The position numbers and the translations under genes were made by a program. From sequence record OQ067376.1: 64,000 bases of DNA; one strand, given 5' to 3'. The first letter of the stretch is position 1; each line of letters begins with the position of its first letter. Shown piece after piece: positions 813 to 60,558 of the stretch. The stretch comes from Escherichia phage a51. Under the pieces are notes generated by a model, which saw only the letters and a program-made list of their open reading frames with translations, was not told the DNA's origin and ran no database searches.

Positions 813-1267
813 AGAGAGTCTCTTAATAGGTTTAACACATCAATAAATTCAGCTTCGGTTAGTATTGTATCATCTTTTGTTAGACCACTAGCCATGCTGT
901 GCTTCAAAATTTTTCCTTTCGAGGCTTGTAATGCATCACGGAAGCCCTTGTTTTGGATCGCTGCTTCAAAATATGCATTTGTGTATAATTCTTTCCACGC
1001 CGGGGAGTATCTTGAAAATGGAACTCCAAGCCAGAAGAGGGTCCCACGGTCCTGAGCTCTTGCATAAGACCTTCCAGCTTGTTGGGCGGCAAGCCCGGAT
1101 AACCCAAATATACGACGTTGTTGTTCAACATTTTTCACTTTGCATCCTTGGAGGAATCCTTCAAGACCTCCAAATTGAATGCCATCCATAACGAAAGGCC
1201 AATGGGCGAAATTACTTAATGCACATGATGGCCACCTAAAATTGCTTCTAATCTCTAACTCAGACAT
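809..1267 (-). CDS. hypothetical protein (T4 30.x-region type)
   Basis: ORF track 809..1273 (154 aa); first ATG is at 1267 (MSELEIRSNF...), the track start at 1273 is TTG. Confidence 0.5.
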   Translation of the reverse strand: MSELEIRSNFRWPSCALSNFAHWPFVMDGIQFGGLEGFLQGCKVKNVEQQRRIFGLSGLAAQQAGRSYARAQDRGTLFWLGVPFSRYSPAWKELYTNAYFEAAIQNKGFRDALQASKGKILKHSMASGLTKDDTILTEAEFIDVLNLLRDSL

Positions 1268-1468
1268 TTTCAATGCTTATAATTTCAACATCAGCCCAAT
1301 GACCATAGCAAGGAAGACGAAATTCAACTGGCCAGTTAGGGTCCTTTTCTAATATAATAGACTCAACTTGCGGTTCTTCATGTTCATCAGTATATGGATT
1401 TTTATCTGTTACTTTATATGTGAGACCTTAATGTACTGAATTCCAAAAATCTTATTAATTATATTCAT
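1263..1468 (-). pseudogene. small gene apparently split between two reading frames (19-codon ORF 1412-1468 plus start-less 55-codon open frame 1263-1427)
   Basis: Own translation: MNIINKIFGIQYIKVSHIK* then, in the -1 frame, GLTYKVTDKNPYTDEHEEPQVESIILEKDPNWPVEFRLPCYGHWADVEIISIENV* with no ATG/GTG/TTG start; fills an otherwise unexplained 190 nt gap. Confidence 0.3.
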
Positions 1469-3440: not shown

Positions 3441-3689
3441 TTACTTCAGTGTTACCACAAAGTGACGAACTGCTTTTCGTGCAGCAGAAGCCAGAGGCTT
3501 AGCATATTTAAGTTCATCTTTTTCCTGAAGCTCAGCAGCTAATGCAGTTTGAGCAGGATTCAGATGTTTGAAATAACGCAGGATTTCAAGAGCTTCGGCT
3601 TCAACATCAATAGATGCGCCATAGTTTTCGTGACCATTATTCCATGCGTTTCGTTGCAGTTCAAGAGCGTGTTGTAATTGTTTAATCAT
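3441..3689 (-). CDS. rIII: rIII lysis-inhibition accessory protein
   Basis: 82 aa ORF, length and position (adjacent to gene 31) match T4 rIII. Confidence 0.8.
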   Translation of the reverse strand: MIKQLQHALELQRNAWNNGHENYGASIDVEAEALEILRYFKHLNPAQTALAAELQEKDELKYAKPLASAARKAVRHFVVTLK

Positions 3690-5689: not shown

Positions 5690-5922
5690 AGTACGCCATA
5701 CACCCTTTGTGCTTCAACTAATCCATCAAAATCCAATTTGAGATGTGTTATTTGGTCACCATCACCTGGATTCACAATTACTAATACCGAACGAGGAGTT
5801 TCGGTAATAACACGAACCGACGTTTCAGGAAATCGTTCAGAAACCTTATTTACCAATTCTTGAGCAAATAGTTTAACTTTTTCTTGGAATTCTTTAACAG
5901 TAATTGGTTTTTCGCTTAGCAT
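5686..5922 (-). CDS. hypothetical protein (78 aa)
   Basis: ORF track. Confidence 0.5.
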   Translation of the reverse strand: MLSEKPITVKEFQEKVKLFAQELVNKVSERFPETSVRVITETPRSVLVIVNPGDGDQITHLKLDFDGLVEAQRVYGVL

Positions 5923-6443
5923 GTTGATCCTAGCTCCTTACTTTCAACATTTTTAACTAATTTGACAGAAACTAATTCAGCATCTTGGGTAATCATTACC
6001 GGACCTTCTTCATACTCTTCAAGATATTCTAGAGCTTTCTTTTTAGCTTCTTCCTTCGTATCAGTTTGAGCATAGATATAAAACATACAACCAGTAATAC
6101 CTACTACTTTCCACTTAATTTCTTTATCAGTTTTAATTTCAAATTTACTTACAGAATCATCTTTTTGAACTTCTTCGAAAAAAGAATATTCTAACATATA
6201 AGCAATTGAAAATAACGGGCTAACTTTATAGGATTCACCCATTACATCAACAGCTTTATACCAACAATCATCAATTTCACGTTTAATGCTAATAACATTT
6301 TTCGCAGGATCTATTTTTACTTTAAATGAATTTTCCCCAATAAACTGGGCAATTCGTTTATTAGCCCCGCAAGTTTCATTAAAAATATCTTTATACCCAG
6401 TTTTAAAGCGATAAACCTTATCTTCTTCAAACCATTCGCTCAT
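5916..6443 (-). CDS. hypothetical protein (175 aa)
   Basis: ORF track. Confidence 0.5.
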   Translation of the reverse strand: MSEWFEEDKVYRFKTGYKDIFNETCGANKRIAQFIGENSFKVKIDPAKNVISIKREIDDCWYKAVDVMGESYKVSPLFSIAYMLEYSFFEEVQKDDSVSKFEIKTDKEIKWKVVGITGCMFYIYAQTDTKEEAKKKALEYLEEYEEGPVMITQDAELVSVKLVKNVESKELGSTC

Positions 6444-19557: not shown

Positions 19558-20094
19558 TTATATTACCTTTAACTCTTCGCCATCCAGGAGTTTTACCGTA
19601 CAGATTAGAGGATAATAATAACACATAATTCTCGTAAGCAATATGAGAGATAATTTCCAAGACTCTATATTAGCTCGTGATGTTTTCCAAGGTCTAAAAT
19701 CGTCACGGTTCATATAATTAGCCAATCTCATATGCTCTCTAACTTCCGGGTCTTTGGCTGGATGAGTTTCACCACTCACACCAAATCCGCCGCCAGCATA
19801 TACCAGATTAAAATAGTCTGGATTATCTCTGGCATTTACTTCAAGTTGGTATTTTCGCTCTGCTTCAATAACATCCAAATCATCATCAATTTGAATTATT
19901 TTAACGCTCGGTTTTTGAAGCATCACCGCATTTAAAAATCTTTTTTGTTTGCACGAGCTCCAGTATTCCTTTCCGGAAGAGTCATATATTATTCCATTCT
20001 CAAATGAGCAATTTAATTTACTGCCGATATAGTAGTACGGCGGAGTCTTATTTTTGACACGGTCTTCAAATGTAAACCAATATACTATATTCAT
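19558..20094 (-). CDS. GIY-YIG homing-endonuclease-like protein (SegG-like, between 32 and 59)
   Basis: N-terminal IVYWF...YYYIGSK motif; position matches T4 segG; C-terminus uncertain (overlapping frame 19460-19660 also open). Confidence 0.55.
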   Translation of the reverse strand: MNIVYWFTFEDRVKNKTPPYYYIGSKLNCSFENGIIYDSSGKEYWSSCKQKRFLNAVMLQKPSVKIIQIDDDLDVIEAERKYQLEVNARDNPDYFNLVYAGGGFGVSGETHPAKDPEVREHMRLANYMNRDDFRPWKTSRANIESWKLSLILLTRIMCYYYPLICTVKLLDGEELKVI

Positions 20095-28076: not shown

Positions 28077-31025
28077 ATGGCTACTTTAAAACAAATACAA
28101 TTTAAAAGAAGCAAAATTGCAGGTCAACGTCCTGCAGCTTCAGTATTAGCCGAAGGTGAATTGGCTATAAACTTAAAAGATAAAACAATTTTCACAAAAG
28201 ATGACTCAGGTAGTGTTATAGAATTAGGTTTAAAATATGGAGGAACTATAAATGGGTCTTTAGAGGTTACAGAAAATATAACTGGAACTTTAATTGGAAA
28301 TTCTAGCACAGCTACTAAATTGCAAACACCTAGGAAAATTAATGGTATATCTTTTGATGGGTCAAAGGACATTACCTTAACTCCATCTGACATAAATGTC
28401 AATAGCACAACATTTATAAAAAATAATGGCGAATTACCTACTGATGCTAATTTAGATACGTATGGGCCCATTGAAGAATATCTTGGTGTTTGGTCGAAAT
28501 CTACTTCAACAAATGCGCAACCAGCAAATAAATTCCCAGAAGAAAATGCCGTAGGTGTACTAGAAGTGTTTGTGGCCGGCCAATTTGCTGGCACTCAGCG
28601 TTATACTGTAAGATCTGGTAACGTCTATATTCGTTCCTTATCTGCTAAATGGAATGGCGTCGATGGTCCATGGGGTGTGTGGCGTAATGTTCAAGCGTCA
28701 ACTCGTCCACTTTCACAAACGATTGACCTTGATAGCTTGGGAGAATTAGAACATTGTGGCTTATGGCGAAACAGTTCAAGCGCAATCGCATCATTTGATC
28801 GCCATTATCCAGAAGAAGGATCAGCCGCACAAGGATTTTTAGAAATATTTGAAGGTGGTTTATACACGAGAACTCAGCGTTATACTACCCGCATGGGTAT
28901 GGTTTATACTCGTTGTCTCGCTGCTGCATGGGATGCTAGTGCACCTAAGTGGGAGGAATGGAAGCAGGTTGGTCATGGCACACCAGCGACTTTCTATGAT
29001 GGAGATCTGAATGATTTTAAAACTCCCGGGTTATATAATATTTTAGGCACTGATGCCGTTATTAACTGTCCTACAGGTGAAGGTTTGCCGACTGTTATTG
29101 TTGGTTTGCTGGAAGTTAAACAGCGTGCTTCTGGCGGTGCTATTTTCCAACGTTTCACTACCGCAGGAACGGGTGCAACTACTCGCGATCGTATTTTTGA
29201 GCGTGCATATACTGGTGGTGCGTGGGGTGCATGGAACGAAGTATATACATCTTATTCTCTGCCAATTACTTTGGGTATGGGTGGTATTAAAGCTCAATTA
29301 GCGGAGTTAGATTGGCAAACCTTTGATTTTGTCCCTGGTAGTATGTTTAGCGTTCCTTTGAACAAAATAAAGAACATGCCAGCTAATATGGATTGGGGTA
29401 CGATTGACGGAAACTTAATTATGTTTTCTGTTGGTCCTAGCGAACATACTGGCACAGGACGTACTGTTCAGGTTTGGCGTGGTACTGTATCCCAGACAAA
29501 CTACCGTTATTTTGTTGTGCGTATAGCTGGAAATCCAGGAAACAGGACTAACACTTGTCGCCGTGTTGTTCTTGAAGACGGATCACATACTTGGACTGCT
29601 CAACAAAACTTTAGGGGATTGCTAAATATCACCGCTGATATTAATCTTGGTGCTAATAAGAAAATTTCAATTGCTCCTGGAGCATATATTCAAGGCCCTG
29701 CTAGCGGTTCTGGTTCAAATACTTACGCAAATCAGAATACTACTATTGCGCCATTATATCAGGCCATTGACGATTCAAATAAAAACCAGTTTGCTCCTAT
29801 TGTAAAACAGAAAAACACTGTAACAAATATTACTATGGCTTCTGGTATGGATATTGCTAGTTCAGAATATCGTATCATTGCTCAAGGTGATTTATCCGCT
29901 ACTGGAACTACAGCTAATGAATTAGCTACATGGCGTTTCTTGCCGTCTGGCCGATTCATGTCACAAAGCCGAGTTTATGCTGGCGCAGCATTCTTGAACA
30001 CTGATGGTAACATTGCTGGTTCAATCTGGAAGAAATACAACAATGCAACCAACTTAGACGCTGCTTTGAATACTCGCGTAGGTAAAAGCGGTGATACGAT
30101 GACAGGTCGGTTAACAATCAATGCACCTAATGATGTTATTGTATTATCAACAACTGCTAGTAATTCTTTGCATATTCGCGGTGATATAGACGGGACTGGT
30201 AACTGGTATATTGGTAAGGGTGGTGCTGATAATTCGCTAGCATTTTATAGCTATGCTTCTCAGGCGGCAGTACATATCACAAACAATGGTGAGATTGCGT
30301 TAAACCCGCAAAATACCGCAATGGTTAACGTTAACCGCGACCGTGTACACATTAACGGTTCTGGATGGATTGCTAGACAACCGGGTGATTGGGGCAACCA
30401 ATGGCGAGTAGAAGCTCCATTATTCGTTGATCATGGTTATGTTAGTCAAGATAGTTATTATCCTATTCTTAAAGCAAGAAGCGTTATAACCAATCAAGGA
30501 TATAGCACCGCTGTTGACTTTGGTATGCGTCGTATTCCATCACAGTGGGGGCAAGCAATCATTCGTGTCGGATCCACGGAGGCTTCTCCTGATGCTGGAC
30601 ACCCACAAGCTGTGTTTGAATTCCATCATGATGGATTCTTTTATACACCAGGAAATGGTAGCTTTAGCGATGTGTATATTCGTTCTGACTCCCGTCTCAA
30701 GATTAATAAAGAAGAATTAGAATATGGAGCGGTCGAAAAAGTTTGCCGACTGAAAGTTTATATTTACGATAAAGTTAAGTCTATTAAAGACCGTAGTGTT
30801 ATTAAACGTGAAGTTGGTATTATTGCTCAGGACCTTGAAAAGGAATTACCGGAAGCTGTATCTAAAGTTGAAGTTGATGGATCTGATGTTCTGACAATTT
30901 CTAACTCTGCTGTGAATGCTCTTTTAATTAAGGCTATTCAGGAAATGAGTGAAGAAATTAAAGAATTGAAAACGCCTTTCTTCACTAAAATTGCTCGCAA
31001 AATTAGTAATTATTTTAAATTCTAA
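28077..31025 (+). CDS. 37: gp37 long tail fibre distal subunit with C-terminal intramolecular-chaperone-like domain
   Basis: 982 aa; C-terminal ~110 aa ([11 protein letters not shown]...[15 protein letters not shown]...[18 protein letters not shown]) resemble auto-cleaving chaperone domains of fibre proteins. Confidence 0.9.
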
Positions 31026-31057
31026 CAACAAGGGGCTTTGCCCCTTTGGAGAAAATT

Positions 31058-31840
31058 ATGGCAGTAGTTGGTGTTCCCGGTTGGATTGGAAGTTCATCTG
31101 TAAATGAAACAGGACAACGATGGATGAGTCAAGCGGCTGGTCAATTAAGATTGGGTGTTCCTTGCTGGATGAGCCAATTCGCCGGACGCTCAAGAGAGAT
31201 TATTCATACCGTAACAGCAAACCATAACTTTAATGGTCAATGGTTCCGCGACCGTTGCTTTGAAGCTGGCGGTGCACCCATTGTATTCAATATTGTTGGT
31301 GATATCGTTTCTTATTCTAAAGATGTGCCACTTTTCTTTATGTACGGAGATACACCAAATGAATATGTTCAGTTAAATATACATGGCGTAACGATGTATG
31401 GACGTGGCGGTAATGGTGGTAGCAATAGTCCTGGCTCAGCTGGAGGTCATTGTATTCAAAACGATATTGGTGGGAGACTAAGAATTAATAATGGTGGAGC
31501 TATTGCTGGCGGTGGCGGTGGCGGTGGCGGCGGATATTATTCTCCTTTTTCACAAATGAGATTAACCTTTGGCGGTGGTGGTGGGCGTCCGTTTGGTGCA
31601 CCTGGCGGATCTATTGATATGCAATCAGGCGCAACTGCTGGTACTATTTCTGCACCTGGCTCAGGATCCGTGAATGGTATCTATAATGGTGGAAACGGTG
31701 GTGAAGTAGGTTCCGCGGGAGGTAGATGCAATATTCGCGGTCAAGGATCTGAATATAATGGCGGCGCTGCTGGTTATGCTGTCATAGGGTCTGCTCCAAC
31801 GTGGCAAAATGTTGGAGCAATATATGGTCCAAGAGTATAA
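31058..31840 (+). CDS. 38: gp38 receptor-recognising adhesin with glycine-rich motifs (T2-type)
   Basis: Start at ATG 31058 with GGAG six nt upstream (track start 31046 is TTG); multiple poly-Gly runs. Confidence 0.85.
31508..31534 (+). repeat. GGC/GGT codon repeat encoding nine consecutive glycines in gp38
   Basis: ggcggtggcggtggcggtggcggcgga. Confidence 0.8.
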
Positions 31841-31870: not shown

Positions 31871-32527
31871 ATGGCAGCACCTAGAATATCATTTTCGCCC
31901 TCTGATATTCTGTTTGGTGTTCTAGATCGCTTGTTCAAAGATAACGCTACCGGGAAGGTTCTTGCTTCCCGAGTAGCTGTCGTAATTCTTTTATTTATGA
32001 TGGCGATTGTTTGGTATAGGGGAGATAGTTTCTTTGAGTACTATAAGCAATCAAAGTATGAAACATACAGTGAAATTATTGAAAAGGAAAGAAATGCACG
32101 CTTTGAATCTGTCGCCCTGGAACAACTCCAGATAGTTCATATATCATCTGAGGCAGACTTTAGTGCGGTGTATTCTTTCCGCCCTAAAAACTTAAACTAT
32201 TTTGTTGATATTATAGCATATGAAGGAAAATTACCTTCAACAATAAGTGAAAAATCACTTGGAGGATATCCTGTTGATAAAACTATGGATGAATATACAG
32301 TTCATTTAAATGGACGTCATTATTATTCCGACTCAAAATTTGCTTTTTTACCAACTAAAAAGCCTACTCCCGAAATAAATTACATGTACAGTTGTCCATA
32401 TTTCAATTTGGATAATATCTATGCTGGAACGATAACCATGTACTGGTATAGAAATGATCATATAAGTAATGACCGCCTTGAATCAATATGTGCTCAGGCG
32501 GCCAGAATATTAGGAAGGGCTAAATAA
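31871..32527 (+). CDS. t: holin
   Basis: 218 aa with single N-terminal transmembrane segment, matches T4 T holin. Confidence 0.95.
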   Translation: MAAPRISFSPSDILFGVLDRLFKDNATGKVLASRVAVVILLFMMAIVWYRGDSFFEYYKQSKYETYSEIIEKERNARFESVALEQLQIVHISSEADFSAVYSFRPKNLNYFVDIIAYEGKLPSTISEKSLGGYPVDKTMDEYTVHLNGRHYYSDSKFAFLPTKKPTPEINYMYSCPYFNLDNIYAGTITMYWYRNDHISNDRLESICAQAARILGRAK

Positions 32528-40559: not shown

Positions 40560-41498
40560 TTATTTGAATTGTTCAGTAACGTCTTCAACTACTTCGTATT
40601 GGCAGGTACGCATTTTAGCATCGTTGTAATCAATCGGAATTGATACTACATCACGCGGATGTACTTTAACTTTTACAACTCGGCTGGTTGAACTGCCAAA
40701 GTGACGAATATAAGATTTAGAACACACATGCAGACCATGAGAACAAGTTTGTGTATCATCGTCATTCACACGAGTACGTGGCATTTTAACTACTTTACCC
40801 GGACTGTTATCAAAGGTGTTTGAGTGACAGTCAAAGTAATTGCTACGAACTACTTTCCAAGCATAGAAGTAACCATCTTCTGTAATTTCAATATCGTTTG
40901 CTACCAAGAAATCAAAGAGTCGAGATACCGCTTTTTGGCTTGGGTTTTCCAACAGATTTTCCAGGAACGGAAAATAAAATTCAAAGTTTTCGCCTTTTTC
41001 CATCGAATCGAGAATACGATCAACTAAACCAGACCGCAATTCAATGTTTTGATAGAACAAGCTTCCACCTTCAATTCGAACATCGCCGGAAATATATTTT
41101 TCAACAGCGCGACGAACATTAATTTTTTGTGCCGCTTCTTCCAATTTATCTGCAACAAGCAGATTAAGAATTTCCTGGAAGTTTGAATGAGTATTAGGAG
41201 TTGCGTTATAAGTTACACCGTCAACAGTAATTGAAATGAATTTTTTAGATGCATTCCAAATAATGTCAGATTTAGCAACTGGAGCAATAACTGCATCGCT
41301 ATTAACTTTAACTGTAATATCACCACTAATAGTAACTTTAGAGCGCTCAGCTTCTTCAGCATTTTTCAAAACACGACGGATTGTGTCCACCGATACACCT
41401 TGCCAATCAGCCAATTCCTGTTGGGTGTAATTACCACTTGAATACAGTTTGACAATTTCAGATTGTTCGTTTTTGGTCAGGCATTTAATATTGTACAT
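40560..41498 (-). CDS. rIIB: rIIB
   Basis: 312 aa, same length as T4 rIIB. Confidence 0.95.
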   Translation of the reverse strand: MYNIKCLTKNEQSEIVKLYSSGNYTQQELADWQGVSVDTIRRVLKNAEEAERSKVTISGDITVKVNSDAVIAPVAKSDIIWNASKKFISITVDGVTYNATPNTHSNFQEILNLLVADKLEEAAQKINVRRAVEKYISGDVRIEGGSLFYQNIELRSGLVDRILDSMEKGENFEFYFPFLENLLENPSQKAVSRLFDFLVANDIEITEDGYFYAWKVVRSNYFDCHSNTFDNSPGKVVKMPRTRVNDDDTQTCSHGLHVCSKSYIRHFGSSTSRVVKVKVHPRDVVSIPIDYNDAKMRTCQYEVVEDVTEQFK

Positions 41499-41509: not shown

Positions 41510-43668
41510 TTAGGCCGCAAGGGCCTTCATAGTTTTAGCGATTTGGGAAACTTCATCATCACTTAAAGAGTTGCGATATCCGATGAAGTCGGAAACAATA
41601 CGGAATTTCTTAGTAAACTCAGCAACCATTTTATCACTGTTTTTTGAAGCATTATTTGATAATACATCAAAAAGATTAGTTACCGTCCAGATGTCATGAC
41701 CGATGGTATCTTTTCCACCGTTGAAATATACACCCTGTAATGAACTAACCATATTAGCGAGTCGTGTATATTCTTCGGAAACTTCATCATAAAATCTAGT
41801 TCAGGATACTTGATAATTTTATCAATATATCGTTGAGCTGAACTTGAATAACCTACGTACTTATCATAATCTACATCATCAAAAGCATCTACATATAAAT
41901 CACGCAGAGTTTCAAAAATACATTGGCACTGACCAAGTTCTTTTACCTTTTTCTGCAAAAGCGGACGAATAACATAAAATTCATTAATGCCAATAAGATT
42001 AGCCATACGAGTCAAAATACTCGTAGATGGATGACAGAGAGATGTAGTACCATCCATAGAGAAAATATCAGAACGATGCATATATGCTACATAACCAGTA
42101 ATTTCATCTGCTTCTGATGTGAGTGTAAACAGTTCCTCTTTTTCCCAGCGTCCGTCTTTAATTTCAAACTTAAATGCAGTAGCAGCTTTAGGACGAGGAG
42201 CTTTACTTTTAACTACCTTCGGAATATAACTTTTAACTAAAGCTTCAATTTCTGACAAATAATGAATGTTAACTTCATCACTTTCAAACATCGCCATAAT
42301 ATCAGGGAGTAAATCAATCTGCGATTCTACTTCTGGATTAATAAACAGAAGACGCTCATTGTGATGAATATTTAAAGTGTTATTAAATTCACTATCATCT
42401 AACGCATGTGCTAATCCACGAACAATATTAACACGATTTTTAATATCATCAATAACGATATTAATTTTTGTTGTATTAATACCAAACAGACGATAACTTG
42501 ATGCGACGGCTGAAGTTTCATGACTTTGCTTAATGCGTTTCAGTCGAGGGTCAAGATTTACTTCATACACAACCCCTGCATTGCATAACTTACTGTCAGG
42601 TTCAAACATGCTCTGCATCTTTTTATATGACAGATTTTTAGTCGTGAATTTGACTGAATTACTAATCATATAATCTCGAGCAGAATACCCCATCTTCATC
42701 AATTCACGGTATGTGTGACGAGGAGATGTAGATTCTTTAAATCGTTTTACATCTTCATTAAATGCTTTCTCACTGAGTTCTTTAACTCGTTCAATAATAT
42801 TTTTACGAGTACGATCGTCCAGTGAAAGAGCCTCACGCGATGGAGCAATATCAAGTGAACCCATTGGAAACTTAATGTAATTCACTTCATTGCGGATGCT
42901 TAACCAGTTACGGTCTTTAATAACACCATCAATAGGATAAACAATACCACCATAGATAGCATATAATCCACCACGATCTGGCCAGTATCTTTCTGGATTT
43001 ACGCCGTAATAGTCATCAAAATCCGGAAAATAATCAATTTCGCGATCAAGACCATTAATGATAGCCAAATCTTTGAATGGTCGCATGATATAAGAAACTT
43101 CATAAGCAAAGTTTCTAAAGTCTTTTTCTTCAACTGGAACTACGATTTCAATACCAGTTTTATCGTTTGGACCCATTTCTTTTACGAATGTAGGTTTAAT
43201 CTGCGGACCGTCACCATCCATGTAAGCTACATAACCACGAATTTCACCTTTATGATATGAAGTAATACTAAATGTATCAGTATAACTAAACGGAGATTTA
43301 GAACCTAAACCAAATCCACCAATGAAATCATTAGATTCAGCCTTAGATGAACTGAAGTATGAATTATACAACCCAGGAGAATTATCATCACCCTGAATAT
43401 CAAAATCGCTCATACCCGGACCAAAATCTCGACAAACAAATCGCGGATCTAATCGTCCTGGAACTTGAATGATAAATTTTTCAGGATTTCCATTAAGAGC
43501 ATGGGCATCAATCATGTTGGTAATCAATTCACGGACTACTGCGCGAATCTTGTTTGTATACAAATCAGATGATAGAATTTTAAATACTTTAGGAGATGCT
43601 GTGATGCTAAATGCTTTTGATTTAGAACCATTACCAAGAATTGTTTCTTTTTCAGTGGTGATAATCAT
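41510..43668 (-). pseudogene. rIIA: rIIA carrying an apparent frameshift near the 3' end (662 aa ORF 41680-43668 plus C-terminal segment in another frame, 41510-41800)
   Basis: Two ORF-track entries (662 aa and 80 aa) in different frames together span the expected single ~725 aa rIIA. Confidence 0.75.
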
Positions 43669-43678
43669 AATTTCCTCA

Positions 43679-43882
43679 TTAATTCATATTGCGTTTAATA
43701 ACTTCAACAACTTCTAGTAGTTCATCTTTAGTTGCGGTGTCGGATTGAATTTTATCTCTAATATCCTTAAAGCGGTTTTTAAACTCTTCAGCTTCTCCCA
43801 TATCGAAAAAGCGTTGAATGATTCTATATTCTCGATGAACTGCTTTATCAAAAAGTTCTAAATTTACTTTGTATGATTTCAT
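43679..43882 (-). CDS. hypothetical protein (67 aa; rIIA.1 position)
   Basis: ORF track. Confidence 0.5.
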
Positions 43883-43905: not shown

Positions 43906-43937
43906 TAATTATACCACATCCTTGTGGTAAAGTAAAC
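43906..43937 (-). promoter_or_regulatory. T4 early-type promoter
   Basis: gtaaac 43932-43937 (plus); aattataccac -10 region. Confidence 0.5.
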
Positions 43938-45757
43938 TACTGGCTCATCCATTCTTTACGAAGGTCAGCATTATCTCCCATGAGCATTTCAAAAAGCTCT
44001 TTCCAGTTCTCAGGAAGTTTAACAACATCATATACTGGGTTTTGAATCATCTCACGATATTCAGATTTTTCCAAAGAGCCAAGTCCCTTAATATAACGGA
44101 TGCTATGTTTAGGTAGAGCATCTTTGGCACTCTCATATTCAGCGACTGTATAAAACCATTCTTGTTTTTTGCCGACCTGAGCGATGATTACAGGAGTTTT
44201 GACAAAGCGAATTCTTCCTTGTTCAAACAATTCTGGCCAATTACTAAAAAATCCGAGCAGAGAAGGATAAATGCTTCCTAGACCATCATGGTCAGCATCG
44301 GTCATAATTGCAATATTATGATAATTCAAGTTTTCGGCTTTTTCACCAAGAACTAATCCAGTGATTGCGCAAATATCAAATAGTTCTTTGTTTTTAAGCA
44401 TATCAGCATATGACATACCCCAGCTATTAAGAACTTTACCACGCAATGGATAACCACCATGAAGTTCTTTATCACGAACATCAATAAGATATCCGATAGC
44501 AGAATCACCCTCAGTCAAGAAAAGAGTAGTGTCAGCATCTTTACCACAAAGATTCGCTTTGATATGTTTATGAACCTTAGCTTTAGAAGCCTTTTTAGCT
44601 GCTTTAGTTTCTGCTGCTTTTTCTGCCGCCAATTTACGAGCCAAAGCAGCTTCAATAATCGGCATTAGAATTGCTTCATTATTTAGAATAGCGCGTGAAA
44701 TCTTTTTAGCATCAAGTTGAATATGACTACGAATTTCGCCAAATGGAGAAGTCAAACGCTCTTTAGTTTGAGAATCAAATCGCATGTTTTTCATATCACG
44801 AACAAACATGACGATAGTCAAACATTCTTTGACACGTGCTTTAGTTACATCAATTTTGAACTTACGTTTGATTTGTGGAATAAGGTCTTCACAAATATCA
44901 TCCATAACACAGTCAATGTGATGGCCACCATTCTTAGTGTGAATGTTATTCACATAAGTTAATTGACGAAAACCATCCGGTGAACGACCAACTGCAATAG
45001 AACAATTTTCTTGTTCTTGAACGATAGCATGCTCATCATATTGGCGTGCATATTTCTTAAAATTACCCTGAACCTTTTTACCATTAAAGGTAAATTGAAT
45101 ATCAGGATAAACAACAGCAAGTGTCTGGAGACGATCTAGTGTAATGTCAAGATAAACTTGGGACAGCTCATTAGTTTCAAATGACATAAAATCAGGAATG
45201 AAAGTAACACGAGTTCCTTTCCATTTTCCTGGAATAGTTTCCCATGATTTATTTTCCATGCCATTTGAACAACGAACTACAATATTATTTTGACCATCAC
45301 CAGTTTCACCGACAAACATCACAGAAAAAATGTTTGTCAAACTAGAACCAACACCATTCATACCACCGGTGACGCGTTCTTTATCATCACCAAAGTTACC
45401 ACCTGCTTTTGGAATAGTCCATGCAGCAACAGGACCAGGAATTTCTTCACCGGTAGGTGTTTTAACCATCGCCTGTGGAATACCGCGACCGTTATCTTCA
45501 ACTGTTACTTGATTGTTTTTAATAGTAACATTAATTTTATTTGCGAATTTAAACTTAGTACGAATACCTTCATCTACTGAGTTATCGATAATTTCATCAA
45601 TAAGCTTAACAAGACCAGGTACATACTGAACACTTTCCCATTTACCAAACAGAAAGCGCTCATGCATTTCATTAGCAGAAGAGCCAATGTACATGCCGCT
45701 ACGCTTTTTGATATGTTCAATATCGCTCAGAATTTTAATTTCATTCTTAATCATCAC
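43937..45757 (-). CDS. 39: topoisomerase II large (ATPase, GyrB-like) subunit, unsplit gene 39
   Basis: 606 aa contiguous ORF with GHKL ATPase and toprim regions; no gene 60 split. Confidence 0.95.
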   Translation of the reverse strand: MMIKNEIKILSDIEHIKKRSGMYIGSSANEMHERFLFGKWESVQYVPGLVKLIDEIIDNSVDEGIRTKFKFANKINVTIKNNQVTVEDNGRGIPQAMVKTPTGEEIPGPVAAWTIPKAGGNFGDDKERVTGGMNGVGSSLTNIFSVMFVGETGDGQNNIVVRCSNGMENKSWETIPGKWKGTRVTFIPDFMSFETNELSQVYLDITLDRLQTLAVVYPDIQFTFNGKKVQGNFKKYARQYDEHAIVQEQENCSIAVGRSPDGFRQLTYVNNIHTKNGGHHIDCVMDDICEDLIPQIKRKFKIDVTKARVKECLTIVMFVRDMKNMRFDSQTKERLTSPFGEIRSHIQLDAKKISRAILNNEAILMPIIEAALARKLAAEKAAETKAAKKASKAKVHKHIKANLCGKDADTTLFLTEGDSAIGYLIDVRDKELHGGYPLRGKVLNSWGMSYADMLKNKELFDICAITGLVLGEKAENLNYHNIAIMTDADHDGLGSIYPSLLGFFSNWPELFEQGRIRFVKTPVIIAQVGKKQEWFYTVAEYESAKDALPKHSIRYIKGLGSLEKSEYREMIQNPVYDVVKLPENWKELFEMLMGDNADLRKEWMSQ

Positions 45758-57098: not shown

Positions 57099-58438
<1,340 letters not shown>

Positions 58439-59931: not shown

Positions 59932-60558
59932 TTAACCTCTATTCATAAAAGCATTAAAAATTTGGTCATCAATAGAAACATTCACTTTAGACTGTTTTTC
60001 TGATGGTAATTCATATCCACATATTACAATTTTGTGATCAATGTCAAAATACACAGAAGCAATATGATTAATGATGTTTTCAGTAAAGTCTAAATCAACA
60101 TCAATATCTTTTTGACCACAACCCAAAGGATAAATAATGCGAGTAATTCGATTATCTTTAACAAAGATTCCACCGACATACTCTGTGCTGCGTTTAAAGT
60201 CTACACGCCGACGAAATGAAAAATATTCAGGCTCTTTATGAGCTCGGCTCATAGGACACAACGAGTAACTAGAATAAGAGATGTCAAATCCTACGCCTTC
60301 AATATGAGCCAAAGTATCATGATTAAACCAATTATAATCGTACGCCAAATCCATTAGATTATAATACGTAAAAGGCACCGAATTAACATCATTAGTCACA
60401 AGCATGTAATTAGCAACTGCTATAATTTCATTATTTTTAACGAATACAAACCGTGATTGATGCGAATGACCTGGACCCGCGTTTTCACGATTAATGATAT
60501 AACACTGGGCACCTTTATATTTGTATGTATCTTTGCACTTGTGCATTTGATAGAGCAT
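59932..60558 (-). CDS. hypothetical protein (208 aa)
   Basis: ORF track. Confidence 0.5.
   Translation of the reverse strand: MLYQMHKCKDTYKYKGAQCYIINRENAGPGHSHQSRFVFVKNNEIIAVANYMLVTNDVNSVPFTYYNLMDLAYDYNWFNHDTLAHIEGVGFDISYSSYSLCPMSRAHKEPEYFSFRRRVDFKRSTEYVGGIFVKDNRITRIIYPLGCGQKDIDVDLDFTENIINHIASVYFDIDHKIVICGYELPSEKQSKVNVSIDDQIFNAFMNRG

Follow-up and report, generated by a model that had tools for sequence, protein, structure and literature searches.

Reading Frames of rIIA in Phage a51

How did rIIA come to be divided between two reading frames in Escherichia phage a51, and what does the division mean for its product? The question was investigated in a window of 64,000 nucleotides from sequence record OQ067376.1. 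An earlier note, made from the letters alone, had claimed that rIIA was split into open reading frames (ORFs) of 662 and 80 aa and that a single ORF of about 725 aa was the norm, and both claims held. The norm applied to T4, T2, T6, PD112, and the best 120 protein homologues, all of which were 725 aa long, whereas no single uninterrupted ORF of about this length was found in a51. The ORF list and the matches to the RIIA profile PHROG 612 (profile length 725) agreed on the split: the 662-aa ORF matched profile positions 1–627 (E = 5e-232), and the 80-aa ORF, in a different frame, matched positions 647–724 (E = 1.7e-11). In tblastn, the second HSP aligned residues 634–725 with 41788–41513 at 98.9% identity. 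The parts of the gene and its neighbors were as follows.

41680..43668, minus strand: truncated rIIA ORF (662 aa), native residues 1–629 (ending in DFMMK) plus 33 out-of-frame residues, with TAA at 41682–41680
41683..41781, minus strand: frameshifted tail, codons 630–662, with a counterpart in no RIIA
41510..41788, minus strand: orphaned 3' part of rIIA, which keeps the native frame (residues 634–725) and ends in the stop TAA at 41510–41512; it encloses the 80-aa ORF (41510–41752, minus strand)
40560..41498, minus strand: rIIB, intact, 312 aa, identical to WBF83241.1; 98.4% identity with PD112 RIIB over the full length in one frame
43679–43882, minus strand: rIIA.1
43937–45757, minus strand: gene 39, unsplit, 606 aa

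The T-even order of gene 39, rIIA.1, rIIA, and rIIB on the minus strand was kept, and the split gene thus occupied the conserved position of RIIA. The 662-aa product was identical to WBF83243.1, which was deposited as "RIIA lysis inhibitor" of Escherichia phage a51. When 19 nt were restored, the gene encoded a 725-aa protein with 99% identity to the 725-aa RIIA proteins, differing at 8 residues from T6, 11 from T2, 12 from PD112, and 15 from T4. The rIIA of a51 is a member of the RIIA family in the form of a disrupted allele, or pseudogene.

A 19-nt Deletion between Direct Repeats

To locate the frame change, rIIA was aligned with its counterparts in T4 (NC_000866), T2 (AP018813), T6 (AP018814), and PD112 (NC_054928), and locally with that of Shigella phage BCPShso_001. 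In all of these alignments the sole lesion was the absence of exactly 19 nt from a51. Of these, 8 nt are a copy of the direct repeat GATGAAGT and 11 nt are the spacer that separates it from the second copy. The undeleted relatives read TTTTAT-GATGAAGT-ACTTCAGTRTA-GATGAAGT-TTC, while a51 reads TTTTAT-GATGAAGT-TTC; the full-length undeleted sequence at the site is GATGAAGTACTTCAGTRTAGATGAAGT, and the deletion junction is TTTTATGATGAAGTTTCYGAAGA. The two repeat copies lie 19 nt apart, at nt 1881 and 1900 of the gene, in T4, T2, T6, and PD112, and both are also present in BCPShso_001.

41781..41788, minus strand: deletion junction with the lone remaining GATGAAGT copy, placed from the alignments and the repeat positions
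41550..41557, minus strand: a further GATGAAGT copy near the 3' end of rIIA, in the context GATGATGAAGTTTCCC, uninvolved in the deletion

Because a repeat copy was retained at the junction, the protein is native through Lys629; residues 630–662 are out of frame (41781–41683), and the TAA at 41682–41680 follows. The second frame was open from 41800, just inside a TGA at 41803–41801, to the natural RIIA C-terminus (...KTMKALAA). The earlier note had read this TGA correctly and had predicted a frame change between 41683 and 41800, an interval that the alignments narrowed to 41781–41788. It had also proposed a short out-of-frame deletion between direct repeats. The deletion and its kind were borne out, but the letters quoted for the repeats, atgatgaag and tttccgaag, are not the repeats, and the actual repeat is GATGAAGT.

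Replication-slippage deletions classically show a direct repeat at their ends and a looped-out segment able to form a hairpin. Wild-type rIIA genes contained only 4–10 sites at which an 8-mer recurred directly within 60 nt, about the number given by chance (3.7 ± 2.6), and the deletion falls precisely on one such site. Read as ACTTCAGTRTAGATGAAGT, the missing 19 nt can pair perfectly into a hairpin of 6 bp in the stem and 7 nt in the loop. Folded as DNA, ACTTCAGTGTAGATGAAGT gave −2.9 kcal/mol (z = −2.0), a modest value that 15 of 200 shuffles equalled. Judged from these comparisons, the lesion fits a slipped-mispairing deletion, in which one repeat copy and the spacer are gone and one copy is kept, with both copies present in the relatives. 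According to this mechanism, once replication had passed one GATGAAGT, the newly made strand would have slipped onto the second GATGAAGT, at a distance of 19 nt; the looped-out segment may fold into the hairpin just described, and one repeat copy and the spacer would be dropped.

A more complex origin was also considered. A synonymous C at 41777 lies only 4 nt from the junction, and together they make a 14-nt identity to the GATGAAGT copy at 41550–41557, as might be expected of a templated mutation in which that copy served for template switching. This candidate was dropped, since the same C was found in 35 undeleted GenBank records and is therefore an older polymorphism.

Distribution and Age of the Deletion

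The closest intact rIIA genes, those of T6, T2, PD112, and T4, are found at the same locus and in the same gene order, with 96.4–97.5% nucleotide identity. The wider set of records was searched with a 101-nt junction query, which spans 120 nt in the undeleted form. All 491 of the GenBank phage records with full coverage were undeleted, and among the 492 GenBank records queried with the undeleted form, the segment was missing from none. The earlier note had named a similar split in related phages as the observation that would speak against its reading. Such a split was looked for and was not encountered: neither the deletion nor the two-ORF arrangement of rIIA was carried by any of about 491 GenBank Tequatrovirus records. 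The junction pattern had 0 matches in GTDB genomes and 0 in IMG/VR, the latter being uninformative with just 2 contigs of the wild-type pattern. In the JGI metagenomes it had 1 match, by chance, in an unrelated contig of 32% GC for which blastn found nothing similar in the window.

The orphaned 3' part was then compared in its old frame. Over 91 codons, 0 nonsynonymous and 7 synonymous differences were counted against each of T4, T2, and T6. A stretch released from translation had thus kept every amino acid, and the deletion is therefore recent. On the evidence of these comparisons, we infer that it is both private to a51 and recent.

Comparison with Known rII Alleles

Repeat-ended spontaneous deletions in the distal rII region of T4 were reportedly described by Pribnow et al. 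in 1981 and by Singer and Westlye in 1988, and Glickman and Ripley are said to have dealt in 1984 with palindrome-aided slipped-mispairing deletions in general. The a51 deletion resembles these classical T4 rII deletions in that one repeat copy and the spacer were lost, the segment is capable of forming a hairpin, and distal rIIA was hit. The classical deletions are in T4, however, whereas a51 is a natural isolate that resembles T2 and T6 and has gene 39 in one piece.

Disrupted rIIA genes have been met in other sequenced stocks. One culture-collection stock of T4 was found to carry an r1589-type deletion fusing rIIA to rIIB and was sensitive to RexAB (PMC8594841, S5 Fig). As in a51, the distal end of rIIA was removed, and the change was found unexpectedly by genome sequencing. 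The a51 deletion differs in being only 19 bp long and internal to rIIA and in producing no fusion protein: rIIB is complete at 312 aa, and the natural stop region of rIIA and the stretch between the two genes are also retained. Another parallel is RB55/RB59 (KM607002; AIT74913.1, 628 aa), in which an out-of-frame deletion removed 11 nt of rIIA (gene nt 302–312). There too, a sequenced T-even stock has rIIA as two annotated ORFs owing to a short out-of-frame deletion, but that deletion lies near the 5' end and lacks a flanking direct repeat.

Null mutants of rIIA show rapid lysis and RexAB sensitivity, and an A6 tract in the gene has been described as a homopolymer contingency locus (bioRxiv 10.1101/2025.10.21.683753). 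The contingency locus is similar to the a51 lesion in that polymerase slippage leads to a frameshift that inactivates rIIA, with rapid lysis traded against RexAB sensitivity. In contrast, the a51 lesion lies outside any simple-sequence tract and is irreversible by slippage.

Effect of the Deletion on the RIIA Protein

Compared with the intact T-even genes, the a51 ORF is broken past residue 629: the last 96 residues of RIIA (630–725) are untranslated, and 33 unrelated residues are appended after Lys629. Residues 1–629, including the putative GHKL-like ATPase region, are intact.

The importance of the lost part was assessed in the RIIA family, for which 13,842 representatives were collected at E ≤ 1e-3. 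The 14 closest family clusters (29–63% identity) aligned to the extreme C-terminus, with 4.7% gaps over residues 628–725. Mean identity across the 14 representatives was 58% over residues 1–150, 23–28% over residues 301–627, and 19% over residues 628–725. As the C-terminal tail is kept with few gaps across the family, it is a retained part of the protein rather than a disposable appendage.

A sequence search returned no solved structure of RIIA. An AlphaFold2 model of an intact orthologue (P0001) was built on the family alignment, with a mean pLDDT of 81.5. In this model, residues ~584–724 form seven helices, the break falls inside the helix at 622–630, and the helices at 638–649, 662–694, 696–703, and 710–724 are lost after it. 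Foldseek found that the model resembles the Hsp90 family over its whole length (TRAP1 4j0b_B, E = 2e-15), at a TM score of only 0.28–0.33. For the N-terminal ATPase fold of the GHKL type (Hsp90, gyrase B, histidine-kinase-like) expected of RIIA, the Pfam model HATPase_c_3 scored 22.8 bits, under the cut-off of 25 bits. If the Hsp90 analogy holds, the lost helices would match the C-terminal dimerization region of that family, which we offer as a lead.

With the break inside a C-terminal domain predicted to be helical, and four of the seven helices there gone, a loss of RIIA function is expected, and the truncated protein is probably null or strongly hypomorphic. Intact RIIA guards the phage against RexAB and contributes to lysis inhibition on E. 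coli B. With RIIA probably inactive, the gene sequence and the model together predict an rII phenotype: hosts of the E. coli B type should be lysed rapidly, and RexAB should exclude the phage.

Alternative Explanations of the Split

No paper on the phage or its sequencing method was found. The 662-aa product is known from a single NCBI contig of 168,771 bp, that of phage a51, with no independent assembly on record, and the deletion could be an artefact. The rIIA of a51 would then be intact, and the 19-nt gap would have come from library preparation (a polymerase jump over the hairpin or repeat), assembly, or polishing. Polymerases in vitro also slip between direct repeats over a hairpin, and the anatomy of the lesion is thus no proof of an origin in vivo. 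The quality of the rest of the window was checked by listing every indel between the window and PD112 and by a tblastn search of ~105 PD112 proteins against the window. With paralogue cross-hits and diverged patches set aside, frame changes were found in only 2 of the ~105 compared genes: rIIA and one other.

1263–1468: gene of 68 aa, function unassigned, with a TC-to-TCTC duplication near 1422 and a stop after 19 codons

This second frameshift, a 2-nt insertion in the same 64 kb, is also private (259 nt in near relatives vs. 261 nt in the window) and could mean imperfect consensus calling. Elsewhere among the ~105 genes there were no in-frame stops and no homopolymer frameshifts, so that about 103 of 105 genes were frame-perfect. 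With just one other frame break, a generally error-prone assembly is unlikely. Moreover, repeats of 8 bp are not collapsed by assemblers, jumps during amplification are minority events that seldom reach the consensus, and genuine rIIA indel alleles are known in other sequenced stocks. An artefact is therefore rather unlikely, though it is the alternative to be taken most seriously. The earlier note had offered an rII mutant allele or an assembly error, and these two readings still compete. Since the structure of the lesion is just that left by replication slippage and the window is otherwise clean, we regard a real allele as the probable explanation.

A real deletion would matter less if the protein could still be made or could be spared. 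The two frames overlap over ~118 nt (41683–41800), where a shift by −1 would lead back into the native C-terminus. Programmed −1 ribosomal frameshifting or some other recoding could in principle rejoin them into a near-full-length RIIA. Yet the interval contains neither an in-frame X_XXY_YYZ heptamer nor a homopolymer of ≥5, and an arrangement unique to a51 and born of a recent deletion cannot be an evolved recoding site. Programmed frameshifting was effectively ruled out by the missing slippery site and the missing conservation (0/491 records), and the chance of any recoding at this site is close to nil. A contingency locus, i.e., a reversible frameshift in a homopolymer of ≥6 identical bases, was rejected as well: homopolymers around the lesion stay below 5 identical bases, and with 19 nt lost, slippage cannot bring about reversion, so the deletion is not a reversible switch. 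It is also conceivable, though quite improbable, that the allele is real but tolerated, the phage being rII+ or only hypomorphic, either because RIIA can do without its C-terminal 96 residues or because the 80-aa ORF, translated separately, complements in trans. The 629 N-terminal residues, with the best-conserved, putatively GHKL-like part, are untouched, and the 80-aa ORF has an ATG and has kept its native sequence. However, no Shine–Dalgarno-like sequence precedes this internal ATG at 41752 (upstream sequence cgactcgctaat). The C-terminal region is gap-poor over deep divergence and free of nonsynonymous changes among the T-evens, the break is within a predicted helix of a helical domain, and no relative has the split arrangement. 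In classical rII genetics, moreover, the A function is missing in r1589, whose deletion takes away the distal end of rIIA.

Origin and Significance

Thus, we consider it likely that a recent, spontaneous 19-bp slippage deletion occurred in the a51 stock, whose phage should behave as an rIIA mutant. Such a phage would be excluded by RexAB on lambda lysogens and, on hosts of the E. coli B type, would form plaques of the rapid-lysis kind, while its growth should be normal on hosts without RexAB-like systems. As the loss of rIIA would be tolerated on the latter hosts, the allele could have been maintained, or even chosen when plaques were purified.

A different origin would be that the knockout was selected, through a defense of the isolation host that senses RII proteins or through conditions favoring rapid lysis, and that the GATGAAGT/hairpin site is a recurrent hotspot at which T-even phages shed RIIA. 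The site is conserved in all T-evens examined, and a bacterial gasdermin system senses RIIB (bioRxiv 10.1101/2023.05.28.542683). We hold selection at such a hotspot to be a distinctly improbable explanation.

The allele is new, but its kind is ordinary: it is a predicted loss of function by a textbook repeat-mediated deletion, with no new biological feature, and it raises no new question. Its consequences are practical. The deposited label "RIIA lysis inhibitor" covers the 662-aa product of a disrupted gene, and those who use a51 in studies of host range, defense systems, or therapy should expect rII-type behavior: prophage systems like RexAB would exclude the phage, and the timing of lysis would change on some hosts. 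For teaching, a51 provides a clean natural example of a repeat-plus-hairpin deletion in the gene where the mechanism was first worked out.

Sites and Genes around the Deletion

The deletion lies between two sites that resemble MotA boxes, and the start of rIIB and its Shine–Dalgarno context are unaltered.

41628..41651, minus strand: MotA-box-like site with a −10 element (TGCTTCAAAAAACAGTGATAAAAT), intact, upstream of rIIB and downstream of the deletion; pattern match only
41863..41887, minus strand: second MotA-box-like site (TGCTTTTGATGATGTAGATTATGAT), intact, upstream of the deletion; pattern match only

The pattern discriminates weakly: chance alone would give 14 matches in the window, and 23 were counted. 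The site at 41628–41651 may correspond to a T4 rIIB middle promoter. Because both flanking sites are unchanged, expression of rIIB is probably little affected by the deletion. Two further genes were compared with PD112 and were intact.

3444–3689: rIII, intact, 100% identical to PD112
31871–32527: holin t, intact, 99.1% vs. PD112

Repeat Copies and Mutant Alleles of rIIA

The rIIA deletion of phage a51 lies between two copies of an 8-bp direct repeat, GATGAAGT. We found this repeat four times in wild-type rIIA and three times in the rIIA of the window, as follows.

42272-42279 (-), GATGAAGT copy
41781-41788 (-), GATGAAGT copy
41550-41557 (-), GATGAAGT copy

The peptide motif DEVS is encoded twice, by the two 3' copies (SxDEVSEEY and SDDEVSQIA). 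Wild-type rIIA genes could also undergo other GATGAAGT-mediated deletions, with lengths of 231 or 250 nt.

Altered rIIA sequences were also found in other T-even records.

rIIA of RB55 (KM607002), 1-2167, with a deletion at gene nt 302-312

This 11-nt out-of-frame deletion (ATAATTCATAC) is present in both RB55 and RB59, where it leads to the annotation of rIIA as two ORFs of 104 and 628 aa; it is a further mutant rIIA allele in GenBank, so far unremarked. Apart from the deletion, RB55 rIIA is identical to T4 rIIA except for a pair of compensating indels (-1/+1) in the T4 RefSeq record (NC_000866), at gene nt 1526 and 1546. The corresponding patch of five residues reads RNYLR in T4 RefSeq, in contrast to EELFT in T2, T6, PD112, RB55, and the window. 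The indel pair probably stems from an old sequencing error carried in this reference record.

Predicted Fold of RIIA

When the AlphaFold2 model of the intact RIIA orthologue was compared with the PDB, Hsp90-family chaperones (TRAP1, HtpG, Hsc82, and GRP94) were matched over the full length, with 660-760 alignment columns and E values down to 2e-15, but with a TM score of only ~0.3. This similarity suggests that RIIA may have an Hsp90-like architecture of N-terminal, middle, and C-terminal domains.

A Second Frameshift in the Window

1263-1468 (-), 68-aa gene of PHROG 2042, homologue of PD112 gp040, with an insertion near 1422-1425

A duplication of TC to TCTC cuts this conserved gene to 19 codons. 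The region measures 261 nt in the window versus 259 nt in all the nearest GenBank relatives; on this comparison, the duplication is a second private frameshift, besides that in rIIA.

Differences from T4 and PD112

Three genes of the window are uninterrupted.

43937-45757 (-), gene 39, one ORF of 606 aa
11445-12623 (-), nrdB, one unbroken ORF of 392 aa
15493-16365 (-), td, one unbroken ORF of 290 aa

The gene 60/mobA split of gene 39 occurs in T4 and PD112; nrdB and td are each annotated in two pieces in PD112. Because all three are single ORFs here, the genome is without those insertions.

Other loci also differ from PD112.

5916-6443, 19558-20094, and 57878-58438 (all -), three ORFs
59932-60558 (-), AdfA (anti-DarT factor A), full-length (Pfam PF23813, E 2e-135)
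28077-31840 (+), gene 37 (distal tail fibre, 982 aa), then gp38 adhesin (264 aa)

The segments containing the first three ORFs had no blastn match >300 nt to PD112 loci. One ORF, between genes 32 and 59, belongs to a homing-endonuclease family (PHROG 7504, E 3e-96), and the other two to PHROG 3710 and PHROG 8706. AdfA is only ~35% identical to the PD112 protein in the same position; therefore, the locus was replaced by a divergent allele. The gene 37 product shares only ~48% identity with PD112 gp37, and the adhesin that follows is T2-type (Pfam GP38 and Gp38_N). Compared with the genomes that are otherwise closest, the receptor-binding module is thus mosaic.
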